A DNA stretch of 64,000 nucleotides from Candidatus Heimdallarchaeota archaeon (GTDB lineage: Archaea > Asgardarchaeota > Heimdallarchaeia > JABLTI01): assembly GCA_030614005.1 (NCBI GenBank), contig JAUWKS010000005.1, positions 41,964-105,963 of the forward strand, written 5' to 3'. The position numbers were made by a program, and so were the translations under genes. Position 1 is the first letter of the stretch. Each line of letters starts with the position of its first letter. The notes under the pieces are model-generated. The model saw only the letters and a list, made by a program, of their open reading frames with translations, was not told the DNA's origin and did not search any database. Positions 3,078 through 58,153 of this stretch are shown here, one piece after another.

Positions 3078-6000
3078 TTACTCTGTTTGGGGGAGGAGTA
3101 TCTCATTTTCAACAAAGTAGATTATTTGCTGAAGAATTTCATCATGAGAGAGAGTTTTCGACTCTTTAAATGAACGAGTAATTAATTGATGAATATCTAA
3201 AGCTGTATCTTCACCAAAATTCTCAAGATGGTTTTCAAGAATAGAAACCATTTGAATATCCGCAATATTTGTTTTAGCTAGATTTTCCTTGTGAATAAGC
3301 ATGGGAGCAAAGTAGTAGATATGTAAGTACTCATCCAATAATGGTATTGCAGTATTAAATACTTCAACGAGCCCAGTGAATTCTTCTAGGTCTCTTTTAA
3401 AGACAGTTTCAAATCGTTTAAGCAAGTCCCAATTTGGCATTTTGAATTCCTTGGATGGCTCATCATCAAGAAGGAGAGCAAGTCTAACATTCTTACCCTC
3501 AAAAATCCAGAAAATGCCTCCTTTTTGACCCATTTGACTAAATTTGTTAGAAGGTGGTTGATCAGCATCTACCAATTCTTGACCAAAACCTGCAATTGCT
3601 GTCAAAAAGCCACTAGCTAAGGCTGAATCAATGTTATGAGCAAAATTAATTGAAAGTAATGGAACTCCATTCTTCTCCATGAAGATAATGGATTTGATTT
3701 TTAAAATATCAGTTAAAAAGCCAATAGAAACTTTCGAATCAGTTTTCAAAACGGAAACTACAGGAGAAGTTTCAGGAGCTTTAATAGCGTCAAAATTCAG
3801 TGGTTCAATTTCAGTTGTTTCGATAATAGCAACTGGAGCAGCTTCAGTTTTTGCTAGATCTTCAGCTTGGAGCTCTTTCCGTCTTAACTTTCTTTCCTTT
3901 CTCGCCGGTCGTAATTTTATTACAAGCAAAGTTGAGATGATAATTACAACAGCACCTGTGGACAAACCACCTATCAATAGATAAAGCCAAAGATTATTGC
4001 CAGGATAATCAGTGTTGTCATTTGGGTCAGTTCCTGCGTCAATTTCCTCTTTGTCAGTAAAACCATCGTTGTCTGAATCGGCGCTAAGGGGGTTGGTTAT
4101 AAAACCATCAACTCCCTCAAAGACTTCTTCTCCATCTAAAATACCATCGTCATCGGTGTCCTCATTATTGGGATCAGTGTAATAAGTAAAAATCTCGAGA
4201 TTATCATCTAACCCATCGGAATCTGTATCTGCTTTGTAGGGATTTGTTTCAAAAATCTCTAGTTCAAAGTAATCAGCAAGACCATCACCATCAAAATCGC
4301 GGTCAATGATTTCTAAACCATCATTAAAGTCTGCAAGGTAAGTGTAATTTTCATAAAAAGAAACACCATAAGCATTTCCACCATCGTAAAATTCTTCTCT
4401 TAGTCTTGGACTAGCTTTATTTGTAACATCAATTGTTTTCAAACCTGAACTACCATCAGCGAGATATGCAAAATCACCGAAAACATCTATCCCATATGCC
4501 GAACTGGTCCCATCATCATATTCACCTACTTCTTGAGGGTTCACTTTATCACTGATATCAACAATTTCCAAACCAAGCGATCTATCAACTAAATAAGCAT
4601 AAGCACCATTCACTACAACTTCATTGCAGCTTCCGCCATCATCAAAAACACCTACAGTAACAGGATTTAACTTATCATTAATATTAATAATCTTCAAACC
4701 ATCATAATTATCTGCGATGTAAGCGTAATTACCTGAAACAAAAATGCTCTGAGCGTTAGTAATTAGATTATCGTATTTTACTAATTGTACTGGGCTGTTT
4801 TTATCTGTGATGTCAAAAATTTCCAAACCATCTGAGCTATCCGCTAAGAAAGCATAATTATCAACCACCATCACATCTGTGTAATACCCACCATCAGTAA
4901 AGTCACCAACTTTCTGAGGACTGTCTTTATTACTAACGTCAATAATTTTGAAACCATCATTTCCACAAGCAATAAAAACATAATTGCCTGCTACAAAAAT
5001 ATCATTGGTATAACCACCATCATTGAAGTGACCTATACTTTGAGGATGTGTTTTGTTACTAATATCGATAATATCCATACCATTGTAACCACTAGCAAGA
5101 TATGCGAAATTATCTTCGACTGCAACTTTTCTTGCGTATCCTCCTGTAACAAATTGTCCTTCTTCAAATGGATTAGATTTGACACTAGCGTCAATGATTT
5201 CAAAACCATCCCAACCATCTGCTAAATAAACAATATTTCCGTCAACTAAAACATCTACAGCATATCCACCATCGAAGAAGTATCCAACTTCTACCGGGTT
5301 AAATAGGTCTACAATACTAACTATGATCAAACCACTCAGATAGGTAGCTAAGTAAGCAAAATCACCAAAAACATCGATATCTTGAACAAAATATCCATCA
5401 TCGAATGTACTAACTAATGCTGGGCTATTTTTGTAAGTGACATCAATTATCTTCATTCCATCCCAACCAGCTGCAAGAAAGATATTATTACCGTTCAATG
5501 CAATACTAGAGTAAGAATCTCCAGCATCATAACCACTAATTGGATCGGGATGGCTTTTATCAGTAATATTTAAGATATTTAAACCATCATTTCCAGCTGC
5601 TAGAAAAGCAATATCTTCATCGATAACAATATCATACTCGTTTCCAAGTGTATTGAATACACTTTTTTGAACAGGGTTATTTTTATCAGAAACATCAACA
5701 ATTATCATACCATTTGAATATTCCATAATGTAAACAAAATTACCATCCACAACGATGGATTCAATGCTACTCCATGTGGAAAGATGAGCAATTTCTATAG
5801 GATTTGTTTTATTACTGATATCAATAACTCTTAGACCATTATAACCTACAAAGGCATAATCGCCATCTACTGCTACTGCTCTAATTATGTAATTATCATA
5901 CAGTTGACTTACAAATGAAGGTGATGTAGAATCGCTTATATCAAGAATTTGAAAACCGCTAAAAGAACTAGCCAGGTAAGCATAATCACCTGAAATATCC

Positions 6001-6251
6001 ACATCTAATATTGAACCATACTTTTCATCAATTTGACCGAGTTCGATATCATAGTAAATAGAAGTCGTCTCTAAATTGGTAAAAGGTGGGAGACTATTAG
6101 TGATTAACTCATTTTCGTCAATGTTCTCTCCACTAAGAAAGTTATTTTGCTGCAATTGGAAAAATATTGAACAACAAAAAAGTAAAATTACAAATCCTGG
6201 CATTAATGTTCTTCTCAATTGCCAGATATTAAGTAACATCAAAGTAATCAT
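3078..6251 (-). CDS. Large single-pass membrane receptor-like protein. Order: signal peptide, ~14 LVIVD beta-propeller repeats, thrombospondin type-3-like Ca-binding repeats, TM helix, cytoplasmic Roadblock/LC7 (MglB-like) domain, helical C-terminal domain
   Basis: N-terminal hydrophobic signal. Repeated ~43-aa units of the form GDYAYLA...GLxIIDISNKTNP (LVIVD signature GMIIVDVSD, GLEIVDISD, GFEIIDASV). DxDxDGxxDxxE repeats (DTDSDGLDDNLE, DTDDDGILDGEE, DSDNDGFTDKEE). TM LWLYLLIGGLSTGAVVIIISTLLVIKL followed by the basic stop-transfer RPARKERKLRRK. Cytoplasmic SKVSIGFLTDILKIKSIIFMEKNGVPLLSINFAHNIDSALASGFLTAIAGFGQELV...GGIFWIFEGKNVRLALLLDDE fits the roadblock fold consensus. Confidence 0.8.
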   Translation of the reverse strand: MITLMLLNIWQLRRTLMPGFVILLFCCSIFFQLQQNNFLSGENIDENELITNSLPPFTNLETTSIYYDIELGQIDEKYGSILDVDISGDYAYLASSFSGFQILDISDSTSPSFVSQLYDNYIIRAVAVDGDYAFVGYNGLRVIDISNKTNPIEIAHLSTWSSIESIVVDGNFVYIMEYSNGMIIVDVSDKNNPVQKSVFNTLGNEYDIVIDEDIAFLAAGNDGLNILNITDKSHPDPISGYDAGDSYSSIALNGNNIFLAAGWDGMKIIDVTYKNSPALVSTFDDGYFVQDIDVFGDFAYLATYLSGLIIVSIVDLFNPVEVGYFFDGGYAVDVLVDGNIVYLADGWDGFEIIDASVKSNPFEEGQFVTGGYARKVAVEDNFAYLASGYNGMDIIDISNKTHPQSIGHFNDGGYTNDIFVAGNYVFIACGNDGFKIIDVSNKDSPQKVGDFTDGGYYTDVMVVDNYAFLADSSDGLEIFDITDKNSPVQLVKYDNLITNAQSIFVSGNYAYIADNYDGLKIININDKLNPVTVGVFDDGGSCNEVVVNGAYAYLVDRSLGLEIVDISDKVNPQEVGEYDDGTSSAYGIDVFGDFAYLADGSSGLKTIDVTNKASPRLREEFYDGGNAYGVSFYENYTYLADFNDGLEIIDRDFDGDGLADYFELEIFETNPYKADTDSDGLDDNLEIFTYYTDPNNEDTDDDGILDGEEVFEGVDGFITNPLSADSDNDGFTDKEEIDAGTDPNDNTDYPGNNLWLYLLIGGLSTGAVVIIISTLLVIKLRPARKERKLRRKELQAEDLAKTEAAPVAIIETTEIEPLNFDAIKAPETSPVVSVLKTDSKVSIGFLTDILKIKSIIFMEKNGVPLLSINFAHNIDSALASGFLTAIAGFGQELVDADQPPSNKFSQMGQKGGIFWIFEGKNVRLALLLDDEPSKEFKMPNWDLLKRFETVFKRDLEEFTGLVEVFNTAIPLLDEYLHIYYFAPMLIHKENLAKTNIADIQMVSILENHLENFGEDTALDIHQLITRSFKESKTLSHDEILQQIIYFVENEILLPQTE
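4100..6050 (-). repeat. Tandem ~129-nt (43-codon) coding repeats encoding the LVIVD beta-propeller blades of the 3078..6251 gene
   Basis: Periodic recurrence of GD(Y/F)AY(L/I)A ... G(L/M)xI(I/V)D(I/V)S(D/N)K(T/N/S)xP in the translation. Boundaries are approximate. Confidence 0.6.
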
Positions 6252-45563: not shown

Positions 45564-47174
45564 ATGAACAATAATACTCGCAAAGAGATATTAGAACAAA
45601 TTGCAGAAGGAATAATTTCTGCAGATGAAGGTTTTAGACTTCTTCAAAAATTTGAACGAGCAGATGCTGAAATTTCACATCTGGTTAACATCAATTCTCA
45701 TACGCCCGTTTCAACAGATGTTTTTAATGAAATATCTACAAACATTGCACCTTATATTAAACCAGAATTTTTGCTTGCATTACGCGAATTTAATTTCGAA
45801 GAAGGTATCACTCACTATGAGTTAAAAGAATTCATTTTGAAAGAGCTCAATAACGATTATCAGAAAGCTATAGCCAAATATGGTTATAAGAAACTCTCCA
45901 AGGATGACCTCTACAGTTTTCTAACAAATGGCATCACCCCAGAATATTTGTATGAGTTAAAAAGACGTGGCTATTCCGATATTCCAATATCTCAATTGAT
46001 CAAGATGGGCATTCACAATGTCGAAGTAGATTTTATTGATGATTTGAAGGACCAAGGTTATGATGGTTTATCTCCAAATCAATTAGTAAAAATGTCTCTA
46101 CGAGATGTCACACCCGACTTTATTTCTACATTAAAAGAACTCGGTTATCAAAATCTTTCTGTTAATCAATTAGTGAAACTTCAAAGTGCAGGGATAACTG
46201 CCAAATATATTATTGAACTTGAAAAGGCAGGATTTAGTGAACTTGCCCCCAGTATTTTGTTAAGTTTAATCACTGCAGGTGTAGATAAGGAATTTATCAA
46301 AAAAGCACGAAAGGAATTTGGAAAAGATATTCCATTAAACCAAATCCTGAAAATGAAAAAATATAGTGTAACAGATTCTTTCGTAAAAGAAATGAAAAGT
46401 TTGGGTTATGATAATCTCTCACCAAACCGTTTTGTTGAATTGAAAAAGAGTGGTGTAGATACCGGTCCAATAACAAATTTGGAATCTCTAGGCTACTCCA
46501 ATATTTCAGTCGATACTTTGTTGGAACTACAAAAACATGATGTTTCTATGAACTATATCAATAAAGTTCTTGATGCTGGGTTGAAAGTTAAGGATATTGA
46601 AGATTTTATCGAACTTTCAAATCATGATGTTTCACCACGGTTTATTGAACATGTAATGAAATTAGATCTAAATATCAAGGATATTGATGACCTAATCGAA
46701 CTCTCAAGTCATGATGTTTCTATTGAATATATTCAGAAATTGAAAGATAGAAATATCCAAATAAAAAATATCGATGAATTGGTAGAATTTGCAAGTCATG
46801 GCGTTACTCCAGAATATATTAGCAAACTTCAAAATGCGGGTTTGAAAATCAAAGATTTAGATGAATTGGTTGAATTAGCTAGTCATGATGTATCTCCACA
46901 ATTTATCATTGATTTACAACAATCTGGTTATGGAAAATTTGACATCGATGATATTATAGAATTACATGATAATGGAATAGATGTTAAATTCATGACAAAA
47001 ATAGCTGAACTCGGGTATTCTAAACTTGATGTTGACCAACTGATCGAGTTCCATAATCATGATATCGATGCAGCATTCATTCAAGCGCTTAAGAATAAAG
47101 GAATAAAAAAACTTACTCCTGATAAACTCATTGAAGCAAAAGAAAATGATTTATTGAATTTCTTTGATGATTGA
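45564..47174 (+). CDS. Tandem-repeat protein: N-terminal ~110-aa domain followed by ~14 consecutive 29-residue repeats (predicted alpha-solenoid)
   Basis: Units such as PNQLVKMSLRDVTPDFISTLKELGYQNLS / VNQLVKLQSAGITAKYIIELEKAGFSELA / IDELVEFASHGVTPEYISKLQNAGLKIKD / LDELVELASHDVSPQFIIDLQQSGYGKFD. SD AGAGGT precedes the ATG. Confidence 0.7.
   Translation: MNNNTRKEILEQIAEGIISADEGFRLLQKFERADAEISHLVNINSHTPVSTDVFNEISTNIAPYIKPEFLLALREFNFEEGITHYELKEFILKELNNDYQKAIAKYGYKKLSKDDLYSFLTNGITPEYLYELKRRGYSDIPISQLIKMGIHNVEVDFIDDLKDQGYDGLSPNQLVKMSLRDVTPDFISTLKELGYQNLSVNQLVKLQSAGITAKYIIELEKAGFSELAPSILLSLITAGVDKEFIKKARKEFGKDIPLNQILKMKKYSVTDSFVKEMKSLGYDNLSPNRFVELKKSGVDTGPITNLESLGYSNISVDTLLELQKHDVSMNYINKVLDAGLKVKDIEDFIELSNHDVSPRFIEHVMKLDLNIKDIDDLIELSSHDVSIEYIQKLKDRNIQIKNIDELVEFASHGVTPEYISKLQNAGLKIKDLDELVELASHDVSPQFIIDLQQSGYGKFDIDDIIELHDNGIDVKFMTKIAELGYSKLDVDQLIEFHNHDIDAAFIQALKNKGIKKLTPDKLIEAKENDLLNFFDD
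45890..47170 (+). repeat. 87-nt period tandem coding repeats (29 codons, ~14 copies) inside 45564..47174
   Basis: Periodicity read from the translation; approximate boundaries. Confidence 0.6.
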
Positions 47175-47553: not shown

Positions 47554-48753
47554 TTACTTCTGTAAATCTTCAATAGAATCTATTGTAATTTTCTGTAAAC
47601 ATATAGGGCATTTACCTTGTGTTTTTAACCATTCGAAGAGATGGGTAAGATGGGCTTTGGATTCACAGAGAGGACATTGACCAATTTCTTGATTTTGTGA
47701 AATAGGTAATTTGCAAACAGAACATTTGAGGGTTTCCTTGTTGCAATTTGAGCAAATTTTCTGAGTTTTAGAAATCGGGCTCATGCAATAATAACATACA
47801 AGTCCATTTCTTGCTTCTTTAAAGTTAAATATATTATCAATTTCAGCTCTAAATTGAGAATCGCCCAATAACATATTTTGAAGATCTTTCTCTTGTCGTC
47901 CTCTTTCGTTTATGATTAAATGTCTCGAGCCACTCTTACTATCAAATCGAGCTATCCAAAATAAATGGTAAAAAGTATCAACATTTTCAAATTTGGTTAT
48001 TTTGAAATCCTTTTTAATTTTCAAAGCATTTCTCATACCAAGAAACCATTGCCTTTTGAATTTCTCCACAATGCTATTCTGTATAGCAATCTTACCATTT
48101 GCTTCTTTTCTTAATTTTCTCGTTTGGTTTTTGAAATCAGTAGCTTGTTGTCTGTATTCTTTGTATTCAGGCGATGATTTATTAGAGGAGTACATTTCAG
48201 CATTTTTTTGAGCAATGTCTGCTTTTTGTTGAAGAGTGTCAGCTTCTGTAAATAATGGTTGCACTTCTTCTCTAGTTTTTTCTAAATCCAATACTAACTC
48301 ATCATGACGGTGAATATATATTTCAAATAAGCTAGTATAAACAATGCTAGGATCTAAAAACTGAATCACGGGTACATTAATAGTATACGAACCTAAAAGG
48401 TGCAAAAGCCTTTTTTCCTCTTTTGAATAAATCAATGTTAATGCTTTTCTTCCTCCTTTATCCAGTAAAAGTTTCTGAACAAAAGGAAATGAAAATTTAC
48501 CCAACATAAAATTACTTCTTGTATGAATTTTAGTTGAAGTATCAATAGGAGAATTCTGTTTTGTGTAGCTAATCTCAAATTGCCGTACTGGCCATAACAC
48601 TGGTTTGAGATAGGTTAATTTTTCAATTATTTTTCTCTGTAAGAGCCCCCCTTTCTTCCGATGCCTTTCGACTATTTCTTTGATTTTACTTTTCTCTAAA
48701 TTATTCTGAATAACGCGATAACTCACACGGGAAGGCTCCTGGAGAAAATTCAT
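47554..48753 (-). CDS. Coiled-coil protein with C-terminal zinc-ribbon plus RING-H2/PHD-like cross-brace zinc finger
   Basis: C-terminus CYYC-x9-CSNC (ribbon), then CSVC-x12-CPLC-x4-HLTH-x3-WL-x5-CPIC, i.e. Cx2C-x12-Cx2C-x4-Hx2H-x10-Cx2C with the WL....CPxC signature typical of RING-H2 fingers. Confidence 0.55.
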   Translation of the reverse strand: MNFLQEPSRVSYRVIQNNLEKSKIKEIVERHRKKGGLLQRKIIEKLTYLKPVLWPVRQFEISYTKQNSPIDTSTKIHTRSNFMLGKFSFPFVQKLLLDKGGRKALTLIYSKEEKRLLHLLGSYTINVPVIQFLDPSIVYTSLFEIYIHRHDELVLDLEKTREEVQPLFTEADTLQQKADIAQKNAEMYSSNKSSPEYKEYRQQATDFKNQTRKLRKEANGKIAIQNSIVEKFKRQWFLGMRNALKIKKDFKITKFENVDTFYHLFWIARFDSKSGSRHLIINERGRQEKDLQNMLLGDSQFRAEIDNIFNFKEARNGLVCYYCMSPISKTQKICSNCNKETLKCSVCKLPISQNQEIGQCPLCESKAHLTHLFEWLKTQGKCPICLQKITIDSIEDLQK

Positions 48754-48917: not shown

Positions 48918-49664
48918 ATGGTAAGGATTGATTATTGTTCGATTTGTGGGAAAATGCTGCATGGGATTGTACGTAATTGTAGTTATTGTGCTAGAACATT
49001 GTGTAGGAAACATTGTGTAAATGGATTGTGTCCAGATCATCAACATACGATGACAGCTAAACAATCAAAACAACTTGGACAACAAACTAATTCATCAATT
49101 TGGTTAATTATATGTGTATGTCCTATTGGATTATTTTCACTTATGTTTGGTATATTTGGTTTGATTTGGGGGGATGGCTTAATTTTTGGGCTTGTTAGTA
49201 TGTCAATTTTTGTTGTTGTTATTATTGTAACAGTTCTAATTCTTAGAAGGAATAGCAGACGTATTGATAACATTCATACTGAAATAAATCAAGATCGACA
49301 GCAATTAGTTAGCATTTGTCCAAATTGTGGCGGTCCAATTATGGCTAGTAATTCTTCATGTTCGAATTGTGGTACACCTGTTGATTATTTAACATCTCAG
49401 CCATTACCCACTCCCCAAAAAATAAGTAATGATCAAGAACACCACATACCTCCACCTCCTCCTGGTTGGACACCGAATCCACAAATCGACAGAGGTTTAC
49501 AAGAAATTGTTGATGCAAATCCTGGGTCCAAAATTGAAGTCACAGGATTTTATGATGAGGCAACAAATTCCGGATTTCATATTTGTAAGCATTGTAACAT
49601 GAGATTTGAAACCAAAGGTAATACTCGAGAGTGTCCTTATTGCCGAAAACCATTATATGGTTAA
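48918..49664 (+). CDS. Membrane protein with three zinc-ribbon modules (N-terminal, central, C-terminal), two TM helices and a Pro-rich linker
   Basis: CSICGK...CSYCAR...C.KHC; TM helices WLIICVCPIGLFSLMFGIFGLIWG and LVSMSIFVVVIIVTVLIL; CPNCGG...CSNCGT; PPPPPGWTPNP; CKHCN...CPYCRK. Confidence 0.55.
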   Translation: MVRIDYCSICGKMLHGIVRNCSYCARTLCRKHCVNGLCPDHQHTMTAKQSKQLGQQTNSSIWLIICVCPIGLFSLMFGIFGLIWGDGLIFGLVSMSIFVVVIIVTVLILRRNSRRIDNIHTEINQDRQQLVSICPNCGGPIMASNSSCSNCGTPVDYLTSQPLPTPQKISNDQEHHIPPPPPGWTPNPQIDRGLQEIVDANPGSKIEVTGFYDEATNSGFHICKHCNMRFETKGNTRECPYCRKPLYG

Positions 49665-56695: not shown

Positions 56696-58153
56696 GTGAC
56701 GAGTTCAAGGTACAGACAGTTAGATCTTTCGGAAGAAGTATCCGAATTCTTTGATGATTTTGAATTAGAGAAAGTTAGCTCAGGCATTTCTCTATTAGAG
56801 TTCTTTCAATTGAAAGGCATTCTTTTCAATCCAAATAAAATTGAAGATAGTGAAGAAAAAATAGAGGAATTAAGGGTCACAGGAAATCCAAAACAAACGA
56901 TTATTATGTCATTAGTTTGTGGCCTTGGTGTTATTGTATTAGGTATTATTATTGCCGCAGTAATAGCAATTGAGGATCTTGCTGTAGTTGCAGGCATTTT
57001 GGGGTTTTTGATAGGTGCTCCGATTATTTTCTTTGGAATTCGAAATGCTTTAACAAATGTTATTGTTTATAGTGACCGTTTAGTTTTTAGAAAACTATTA
57101 GGTGGTGCCAAAGTTTATTGGCATGAAATTAGAAGTATTGATGTTAGATCTAAAGTTCAAATTACTAAACAGAAAAATTTCTGGGGGGTGTATAAAGAAA
57201 CAGGTAGAAAAACAGTAGGTGTTATTTTAGATATTTATATGGTTGATAAAAAAGTATCTCTAGACTTGGAAGCATATGGATTACAATCTGGTCAATATAT
57301 TCTAAAGAAAATCTTTGATTATATGATTTATTTCAATCCAAAAATTCAATTTCCCAGTAGGGATGATAGAAATCAGATCCAACAAGCAATTACTAATGCA
57401 TACGCCCAAATAAATAGCAACCCTAGCAAAGCATTTGAGCTTGCTATTGGTTTGTTAGTTTTAGACGATAGAGATCCTAACATTTGGAAAATTTTAGCAC
57501 TCCTCATCACTAACATAATGCCTGAAGAAGCTTTTCCATTTATCGAAACAGCATTAAGTTTAGTGCCTAAAGATGCTGATCTTTGGAATGCTAAAGGGTT
57601 AGTATATGAACACTTGGGTGGAAATGATTTGGCTCTTGAAGCATACGGTCAAGCAATTGCAATTGAACCTAGACATACTTTTGCTGATAATAATCTCCGG
57701 AGACTCACTGGGCAAGATCCCATCCCAAACATTCAACCAATTCAATTTGTTATGCCTACAAGTGAAGTTCACTCAATGGAAGCATTACCTGAAATTGAAA
57801 TAAAGGTGACAGTAAAAGATATTAAACAAATTGAAAAAATAATTGGCAAACAAGACAGAATTTCAGTTGCTCATTTAATTAAATTAACTGGTCTATATAA
57901 AAGCAAAATAATTAAAATTGCTACTGAACATTTACATTTCATCTTAGAGGGTGATGTTTTAGTAAAGGATCCAGAAGCTCTGATTAAAGAACAAAAAGTA
58001 AAAGTGGAACGAGTAAAACATATTATTGAAAGTCAAAAAGACGTTCCCTTGGGTTATCTGGAAATAGTTTTAAAATTACCTCAAGATGAAATTATTGATA
58101 TCGTAAAAAATGAGCTTGGTTATAAAATAATTGATAATAAAGTAATCAAGTAA
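56696..58153 (+). CDS. Membrane protein with 2 TM helices, a bacterial-type PH-like (bPH_2/YdbT-like) domain and a TPR-like region
   Basis: TM IIMSLVCGLGVIVLGIIIAAVIAI and VVAGILGFLIGAPIIFFGI; then VIVYSDRLVFRKLLGGAKVYWHEIRSIDVRS (bPH_2-like); TPR-like DLWNAKGLVYEHLGGNDLALEAYGQAIAIEP. Confidence 0.45.
   Translation: MTSSRYRQLDLSEEVSEFFDDFELEKVSSGISLLEFFQLKGILFNPNKIEDSEEKIEELRVTGNPKQTIIMSLVCGLGVIVLGIIIAAVIAIEDLAVVAGILGFLIGAPIIFFGIRNALTNVIVYSDRLVFRKLLGGAKVYWHEIRSIDVRSKVQITKQKNFWGVYKETGRKTVGVILDIYMVDKKVSLDLEAYGLQSGQYILKKIFDYMIYFNPKIQFPSRDDRNQIQQAITNAYAQINSNPSKAFELAIGLLVLDDRDPNIWKILALLITNIMPEEAFPFIETALSLVPKDADLWNAKGLVYEHLGGNDLALEAYGQAIAIEPRHTFADNNLRRLTGQDPIPNIQPIQFVMPTSEVHSMEALPEIEIKVTVKDIKQIEKIIGKQDRISVAHLIKLTGLYKSKIIKIATEHLHFILEGDVLVKDPEALIKEQKVKVERVKHIIESQKDVPLGYLEIVLKLPQDEIIDIVKNELGYKIIDNKVIK

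Follow-up and report, generated by a model that had tools for sequence, protein, structure and literature searches.

Active archaeal cascades of E1, E2 and RING-type E3 enzymes have already been published (PMC5654768; bioRxiv 10.1101/2023.07.25.550441), with those of Asgard archaea being active in vitro (bioRxiv 10.1101/2023.07.25.550441), so neither the RING finger nor a working RING E3 is categorically new in archaea. In srfp, the E3 of Caldiarchaeum, the third and fourth ligands are off register and an extra Cys is present, while mutagenesis shows that residues I30 and W58 are important for E3 function (PMC5654768). Here we describe a C-terminal zinc-binding tail encoded in a stretch of 64,000 nucleotides from Candidatus Heimdallarchaeota archaeon (assembly GCA_030614005.1, contig JAUWKS010000005.1, positions 41,964 to 105,963), hereafter the window, to which all positions refer unless another locus is named. 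The open reading frame (ORF) occupies 47554..48753 on the minus strand, including the stop codon at 47554..47556, and specifies 399 amino acids. The best explanation of its product is a cytosolic Heimdallarchaeial protein in which 310 family-specific N-terminal residues precede a compact, 85-residue, three-zinc tail in which a C4 zinc ribbon packs against a RING-like finger. Whereas the known Asgard RING E3s are only small operon-encoded proteins, the superfamily defined by this tail is larger and unannotated, and its closest known counterparts are the C-terminal domains (CTDs) of the eukaryotic GATOR2 and IFT-A complexes.

A zinc ribbon and a RING-like finger at the C-terminus

The tail opens with a zinc ribbon, C320xxC323-x10-C334xxC337 (47743..47796, minus strand), which is the first predicted zinc site. 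It is followed by a RING-H2-like finger of C4H2C2 type, C344xxC347-x12-C360xxC363-x4-H368xxH371-x3-W375L-x5-C382PxC385 (47599..47724, minus strand), and by a short C-terminal extension of 14 residues (386-399; 47557..47598, minus strand) in which L386 occupies the 'linchpin' position. Candidate E2-contact positions within the RING are V346, W375 and P383. The ORF and the C-terminal spacing, including WL-x5-CPxC, are present exactly as in a preliminary description of this locus, which had also placed an extra Cx2C...Cx2C ribbon ahead of the RING; that ribbon is real, and none of its four Cys varies among 17 orthologues. By a six-frame regular-expression search, the eight-ligand pattern occurs a single time in the 64-kb window, with no second RING. 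When compared with the canonical RING-H2 consensus, C-x2-C-x(9-39)-C-x(1-3)-H-x(2-3)-H-x2-C-x(4-48)-C-x2-C, the finger does not conform, having Cys for ligand 4, His for ligand 6 and a four-residue gap between ligands 4 and 5. Of the earlier label 'RING-H2/PHD-like', the RING assignment stands, but its eight ligands are C4H2C2 and not canonical C3H2C3, and their spacing is PHD-like or that of a 'prokaryotic RING'.

An orthologue search that covered 5.8 billion proteins yielded one identical protein (P0001) and 16 full-length relatives at 40-83% identity. All 12 of the Cys and His ligands, enough for three Zn per tail, are invariant in the 17 orthologues, as are L372, E374, W375, G380 and P383. 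Against a mean column identity of 59% across the same alignment, this invariance is more than a product of chance. Named relatives all derive from metagenome-assembled genomes (MAGs) of Asgard archaea or Heimdallarchaeota, except for one labelled Bathyarchaeia, and 12 loci found in GTDB species genomes are labelled Heimdallarchaeota or Promethearchaeati, except for two from a single Bathyarchaeia-labelled MAG. The MAG labels and the genome scan thus bear out the archaeal host that had been suggested, and narrow it to the Heimdallarchaeota/Asgard lineage. The Bathyarchaeia-labelled contigs (L002/L003 and L009/L015; for example, DATKZI010000004.1) carry the orthologue P0017 and the paralogue P0068, next to a gene for a eukaryote-type topoisomerase IB; the label of such contigs may be wrong.

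To judge by profiles, the protein is RING-like yet a formal member of no curated family. The best Pfam match is zf-RING_2 (PF13639), in which residues 343-385 span positions 2-43 of the 44 in the profile; its cut-off is 27.3 bits, and the score is 17.6 with the whole sequence and 22.6 with only the tail. The Pfam scan of the tail that had been proposed as a check therefore gives zf-RING_2 as the best match over the full profile, though below threshold. Lower scores for the full protein and the tail alone, respectively, were obtained with Prok-RING_1 (PF14446; 15.6 and 19.3 bits, cut-off 29.1, covering positions 1-31 of 54), the generic double zinc ribbon model DZR (14.5 and 20.3, cut-off 27.3), zf-RING_16 (12.7 and 19.1, cut-off 27.4) and zinc_ribbon_16 (10.2 and 16.0, cut-off 27). 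No NCBIfam model matches the protein. One member of the wider superfamily, P0196, exceeds the zf-RING_2 cut-off with 28.7 bits.

Predicted fold of the tail

Two AlphaFold2 models were considered: one of the full-length protein (mc8331ed09e75), built on a 17-sequence alignment and having a mean predicted local distance difference test score (pLDDT) of 84.9, and one of the C-terminal 85 residues, made from 44 diverse tails (pLDDT 89.6; predicted template modelling score 0.74). In the tail model, a beta-hairpin (357-359, 366-368) leads into a helix (369-379) that starts at the two His residues and bears W375, a beta-beta-alpha arrangement that, as modelled, is the RING topology. Foldseek searches of the PDB superpose the tail on the U-box domain 3lrq (root-mean-square deviation (rmsd) 1.2 A over 59 columns), the Rad18 RING 2y43 (1.6 A, 57 columns) and the Prp19 U-box 2bay (1.8 A, 56 columns), and the full-length model on the EL5 RING-H2 domain 1iym (2.2 A, 50 columns). 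The cross-brace RING foreseen in the preliminary description is upheld by this agreement of hairpin and helix with solved RING and U-box domains at 1.2-2.2 A. Neither sequential ribbons nor matches confined to non-RING treble-clef folds, the outcomes named there as speaking against it, emerged from the superpositions. We infer that one site of the cross-brace would be formed by C344/C347/H368/H371 and the other by C360/C363/C382/C385. We hold with high confidence that the tail adopts a ribbon-plus-RING fold.

A large superfamily in Asgard archaea

An exhaustive HMMER search with a tail profile against 1.84 billion cluster representatives (clusters at 50% identity) recovers at least 1,606 proteins at E<=1e-3, of which 361 score at E<=1e-10. 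The statement that RING-type fingers are rare outside eukaryotes accordingly fails for the Asgard lineage, where at least 1,606 protein clusters are found. The only name returned for superfamily representatives in cluster look-ups was Odinarchaeota, for one representative. The full ribbon-RING module is present in 186 of the 217 fetched proteins, and the inter-ligand spacing (10,6,12,4,10) is the same in 166 of those 186. All eight RING ligands, in four pairs, occur in 203/203 superfamily sequences, a set that was itself selected by pattern. The module almost always sits at the very end of the protein, where the last Cys is followed by 18 residues (median), and there are several tail paralogues per MAG.

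What lies upstream of this mobile tail varies widely, and many different recognition or sensor regions are found there in Asgard archaea. Soluble repeats precede it in some paralogues, including TPR (P0041, P0143), HEAT plus a PCI-like region (P0061) and LRR (P0045, P0183), while a solute-binding domain does so in P0175. In P0079 and P0137, an LVIVD propeller and TSP3 repeats are followed by a transmembrane helix and then the tail. A further set (P0064, P0110, P0146, P0157; 800-1,030 aa in total) consists of a signal peptide, an ectodomain of 500-700 residues, a transmembrane helix and a helical linker ahead of the tail.

Stand-alone tails (P0023, P0025, P0027) look like gene fragments or frameshifts and were not used as evidence for small, srfp-like E3s. 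The 75-residue P0023 (L020 211..1973) overlaps the 3' end of a 525-residue TPR ORF in another frame, and is probably part of a single frameshifted or mis-called TPR-plus-tail gene; P0027 (L019) comes after ORFs of 1,001 and 724 residues. At L019 7472..8524, an EAP30 gene (ESCRT-II Vps22/36-like) is found 1.2 kb from a tail-only gene, and at L022 1532..2671 an actin homologue and LVIVD genes are found near another, proximities that may be coincidental. A 77-residue ORF near the EAP30 gene, considered as a candidate ubiquitin, proved to be a transmembrane peptide. At least one fetched Asgard protein reaches 45 bits against the plant RING-H2 protein EL5; by this score, the window protein is much further from canonical RING-H2 than some other members of the superfamily.

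Similarity to the C-terminal domains of GATOR2 and IFT-A

A sequence search of 177,635 distinct PDB chains with the window tail finds its best matches in constructs of the GATOR2 subunit WDR59 (E of about 2e-4), with further WDR24 constructs, MIOS and IFT144 lower. RING-H2 E3s, namely Arkadia, RNF126, RNF24, RLIM and EL5, come next at E of 1e-3 to 1e-2. A profile made from 14 tails gives the same ranking. Alignments to GATOR2 and IFT144 start at the ribbon's first Cys and end at the CP of the RING, and the four ribbon Cys align with the zinc fingers of WDR59, WDR24, MIOS and IFT144. Like the window tail, the GATOR2 CTDs consist of a zinc ribbon and then a RING at the extreme C-terminus, and the unusual spacing CxxC-x4-HxxH-x3-W-x6-CP is common to the window protein, WDR59 and MIOS.

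Searches were also run from the eukaryotic side, and with WDR59 they place the window protein near WDR24 and above MIOS and Sea4. The human WDR59 tail finds its paralogue WDR24 at 36 bits, Sea4 at 25 and MIOS at 21, and the best non-GATOR2 RING in the PDB (synoviolin) at 23, while it scores 30.5 bits against the window protein (E 3e-6 at the same database size) and 36 against the best Asgard tails. The Tetrahymena IFT144 tail reaches up to 36 bits against Asgard members, 30-32 against two orthologues of the window protein and 20 against the window protein itself. When reduced to its RING, however, WDR59 scores only 18.5 bits against the window protein, close to the 16.9 bits of EL5. Because the two are so nearly alike, the specific likeness lies in the ribbon-plus-RING architecture, the spacing and the three-dimensional arrangement, and not in a closer RING sequence; as far as these scores indicate, the extra similarity to GATOR2 over ordinary RING-H2 proteins stems mainly from the ribbon.

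The top 30 Foldseek matches of the tail are nearly all IFT-A or GATOR2/SEA chains. The CTD of IFT144/WDR19 is the best whole-module fold match (TM-score 0.73-0.78, rmsd 1.9-2.7 A over 79-83 of the 85 residues), with matches from human, Chlamydomonas and Tetrahymena models, although several deposited IFT-A models are AlphaFold-derived fits. The CTDs of GATOR2/SEA show 26-27% identity but a TM-score of only about 0.5, with an rmsd of 6.5-8 A. Taken together, nothing known is closer to the Asgard tail than the CTDs of GATOR2 and IFT-A, which are plausibly homologous to it at the level of the module. The ribbon-RING tail, the size and architectural range of its superfamily and its likeness to GATOR2 and IFT-A appear to be undescribed in the searchable literature. 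In that literature, with a review of nuclear pore complex origins left out, we found no paper that links such a tail to protocoatomer-type complexes, and none on both Asgard archaea and GATOR2. A structure-based survey (2026) of eukaryotic signature proteins in Asgard archaea contains, in its main text, no mention of GATOR, intraflagellar, coatomer or zinc, with 'ring' occurring only in its references.

Function and alternative explanations

We lean towards a role for the tail in E2 recruitment, as the common module of substrate-specific RING E3 ligases, and regard this, from motif and model, as somewhat probable. Under this proposal, the RING face (V346, the K-L-P-I loop, W375 and P383) would recruit an Asgard ubiquitin-charged E2, the variable N-terminal part would select the substrate, and the paralogues with transmembrane helices would act as receptor-like E3s. 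A constant C-terminal module behind many unrelated N-termini is the typical architecture of an E3 family, which is one reason for preferring this view. Others are the invariant ligands with their fixed spacing, the profile and fold matches to RINGs, the RING-H2 E3s that come after GATOR2 in the PDB search, the several paralogues per MAG and the Asgard cascades active in vitro. The candidate E2-contact positions are well kept among the 203 superfamily sequences, being V, I or L in 201, Trp in 191 and, past ligand 7, Pro in 198, and the positions equivalent to I30 and W58 of srfp are conserved in the Asgard tails.

Several observations weigh against an E3 function or the RING assignment beneath it. 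The linchpin is Leu or Met in the family of the window protein and is basic in only 36/203 (18%) of the superfamily, whereas active RING E3s have Arg or Lys at this position and the srfp R69A mutant is impaired (PMC5654768). GATOR2/SEA and IFT-A use the same kind of module structurally (PMC9646525; PMC12507694; bioRxiv 10.1101/2022.08.09.503213). Every Pfam RING match of the 399-residue protein falls below its cut-off, and the pairing of ligands was deduced from superpositions of a predicted model. A Pfam scan of all 57 ORFs in the window with 120 residues or more finds no gene for ubiquitin, E1, E2 or Rpn11, and a tblastn search of the window with ubiquitin, UBE2D2 and MoeB finds none for the ubiquitin system either, as the preliminary description had already said of the window. 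Nor are there genes for ubiquitin, an E1-like or E2-like protein or Rpn11 beside four orthologues and four small paralogues. With such genes missing from the window and from these eight related loci, there is no guilt by association to support an E3.

A serious rival, possible though on balance less likely than an E3, is a non-catalytic role in assembly or docking, in which the tail would form RING-RING homo- or heterodimers with the tails of paralogues or dock other partners. It would then join proteins with N-terminal sensors or repeats into bigger assemblies, in the manner of the CTDs of Sea2/3/4, WDR24/WDR59/MIOS and IFT-A. The nearest matches by both sequence and fold are indeed GATOR2 and IFT-A CTDs, and the SEA RINGs 'clearly play a structural role' (PMC9646525), the GATOR2 CTDs form CTD-CTD junctions (PMC12507694) and IFT-A CTDs bind IFT43 or TULP3 (bioRxiv 10.1101/2022.08.09.503213). 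The mostly missing basic linchpin and the lack of a ubiquitin-system neighbourhood point the same way, as do the many paralogues per genome, which would be able to pair. Yet the scaffold of beta-propeller and alpha-solenoid is absent, the E2-contact positions are conserved beyond the needs of a purely structural role, and the RING on its own scores nearly as high with the E3 EL5 (16.9 bits) as with WDR59 (18.5 bits). The preliminary description had hedged between an E3 and a protein-interaction module, and the same two options remain the leading readings.

Two further readings, which would deny the tail a RING, were rejected on the evidence of fold and profiles. It is very improbable that the Cys and His residues form three sequential ribbons or knuckles (C320-C337; C344-C363; H368-C385) of a generic nucleic-acid or protein binder of the DZR/TackOD1 type. 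DZR is the most frequent and best-scoring Pfam match over the tails (best E 3.1e-7), P0212 has a weak match to TackOD1 (21 bits against a cut-off of 32) and a ligand pairing deduced from superpositions leaves such an arrangement some room. The DZR matches, however, are sub-threshold and span only the ribbon and the first RING knuckles, whereas 55-59 residues superpose on RING and U-box domains at 1.2-1.8 A and the beta-beta-alpha unit, with its helix starting at H368-H371, has the topology of a cross-brace. A PHD-type reader of modified protein tails has still less to commend it and strikes us as scarcely credible. The stretch CxxC-x12-CxxC-x4-HxxH does fit the PHD consensus, except at ligand 6, which is His. 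The Pfam matches of the protein and of the tails include no PHD family even at E<=1, no PHD structure is among the top 50 Foldseek fold matches, and the Trp sits in the position of the RING helix and not two residues before ligand 7, so the 'PHD-like' half of the earlier label is withdrawn.

If the tails are E3 ligases, the Heimdall-group archaea already possessed a diversified, eukaryote-style set of substrate-specific and membrane-anchored ubiquitin ligases. Its resemblance to the CTDs of GATOR2 and IFT-A, the nearest among solved structures, also makes the tail a specific candidate, open to test, for the source of protocoatomer-type RING domains. We advance only tentatively, as an idea that may well be wrong, that the Asgard ribbon-RING tail is the direct prokaryotic ancestor of the zinc finger plus RING CTDs of GATOR2/SEA and IFT-A and, by extension, of HOPS/CORVET and alpha-COP. 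In Heimdall-group archaea the module is already fused to alpha-solenoid proteins (TPR, HEAT) and to membrane-receptor proteins, and, were the idea right, one of the three building blocks of the eukaryotic membrane-coat and nutrient-sensing scaffolds would predate eukaryotes, having started as an Asgard E3 or assembly module.

The remainder of the protein and its genomic context

The start of the protein may lie downstream of the called ATG. A GTG codon at residue 10 (48724..48726, minus strand), nine codons past the ATG, aligns with the Met-Ser-Tyr sequence (MSYRV...) at which most orthologues begin; the true length may therefore be 390 residues, with nine spurious ones added by the ORF call. 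Neither a signal peptide nor a transmembrane segment is evident by eye in the 399-residue sequence. Residues 10-310 (47824..48726, minus strand) form an uncharacterised alpha/beta domain in the full-length AlphaFold2 model (pLDDT mostly 80-98), with strands about 20 residues long (45-65, 250-272) followed by two short helices within residues 289-308. Inserted in this domain is a long helical, coiled-coil hairpin (residues 135-244; 48022..48351, minus strand) with helices at 135-163, 165-187 and 195-244 (pLDDT 94-98). What had been called a coiled-coil protein is thus one in respect of this hairpin, but the hairpin sits inside an alpha/beta domain. Searches of Pfam, NCBIfam, PDB sequences, the PDB by Foldseek and BFVD return no significant match to the N-terminal domain, and matches of the domain or its hairpin to occludin, ApoA-I, Vipp1, p85 iSH2 and HlyD were dismissed as generic coiled-coil noise. 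The region is presumed to be the part that binds a substrate or partner.

The window has a G+C content of 30-37% and carries ordinary archaeal housekeeping and metabolic genes, among which the gene described here appears to be monocistronic. Synteny with close relatives is trivial and is lost with distant orthologues, and no conserved partner gene is found across the four orthologue and four small-paralogue loci. A block of AMMECR1, Mut7-C, DHOase and CBS genes is common to two of the loci (L004 and L005), but neither the window nor L002 has it.

A divergently oriented neighbour (48918..49664, plus strand; 248 aa) has a Cys/His-rich N-terminal stretch, hydrophobic segments that are probably transmembrane, a DZR-type ribbon (residues 134-155) and a region rich in Pro, and ends in CxxC...CxxC. 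In the close relative L001, a gene of about the same length stands at this position too, but distant orthologues have none beside them. On the other side lies a 536-residue protein (45564..47174, plus strand) with a SHOCT-like N-terminus at 25 bits, just under the cut-off, and a dozen or so tandem repeats of about 35-40 residues ('...LS.nQLvkl...gvtpefI..L...Gy...'), recognised by eye and matching no family; an ORF of 536 residues is also found at this position in L001. The 1,057-residue protein at 3078..6251 (minus strand) has LVIVD repeats (320 bits, 10 repeats) and a bacterial TSP3 repeat but no RING, and is an ectodomain of the type that precedes the tail in P0079 and P0137. The 485-residue protein at 56696..58153 (plus strand) has a hydrophobic N-terminus, weak TPR matches and two helix-rich C-terminal repeats, but is without the ribbon-RING tail seen in the TPR paralogues of other Heimdall genomes.

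Comparison with known systems

The srfp E3 of Caldiarchaeum and the Helarchaeial RING E3 have archaeal RING-H2-like fingers, as the window protein does. A comparison of srfp with the window protein by published residue positions finds the Ile/Val and Trp E2-contact positions of srfp kept in the window tail. The window gene is monocistronic, and its product has Leu at the linchpin. The gene for srfp, a small protein, belongs instead to an operon with those for ubiquitin, E1 and E2, and srfp has the basic linchpin R69; it also lacks the extra ribbon and the 310-residue N-terminal region. The C4-type first half of the window RING resembles the 'C4HC3' configuration reported for prokaryotes (PMC11354881). 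Prok-RING_1 is matched by 14/14 tail sequences (best E 1.1e-6), although in the window protein it covers only the first half of the profile, below threshold. With the eukaryotic RING-H2 E3s Arkadia/RNF111, RNF126, RNF24, RLIM and EL5, the tail has the Val-Trp-CPxC signature in common, and many eukaryotic RING-H2 E3s pair a transmembrane region with a C-terminal RING-H2. The window RING differs from these in having CxxC-x4-H where they have C-x-H-x2-H-x2-C, in having no Arg past the last Cys and in being fused to a ribbon.

The closest systems remain GATOR2 and IFT-A, where the differences concern the scaffold and the metal. In GATOR2, eight subunits bear a CTD. The Pfam families zf-RING_16 and zinc_ribbon_16, neither of which the window protein matches above the cut-off, are those of the CTDs of WDR59, WDR24 and MIOS (yeast Sea3, Sea2 and Sea4). 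The complex has been modelled with 32 Zn (PMC12507694), or about four per CTD when divided among its CTD-bearing chains, against three for the window tail. The beta-propeller and alpha-solenoid of GATOR2 are absent upstream of the window tail, as seen in the AlphaFold2 model and in the lack of WD40 or solenoid matches in Pfam. No combination of a cytosolic propeller with a solenoid was found among the paralogues examined, some of which have TPR or HEAT repeats before the tail. On grounds of scaffold, zinc count and Pfam cut-offs, then, the tail is not a GATOR2 CTD. IFT-A is a ciliary complex, whereas the window protein is archaeal. IFT144 differs in having lost several RING ligands, leaving a 'degenerate RING' (bioRxiv 10.1101/2022.08.09.503213), and its CTD sits after WD40 and TPR regions, whereas the window protein has no tandem WD40 propellers or TPR. 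Other IFT-A subunits, namely IFT121, IFT122 and IFT140, likewise end in a zinc finger plus RING CTD.

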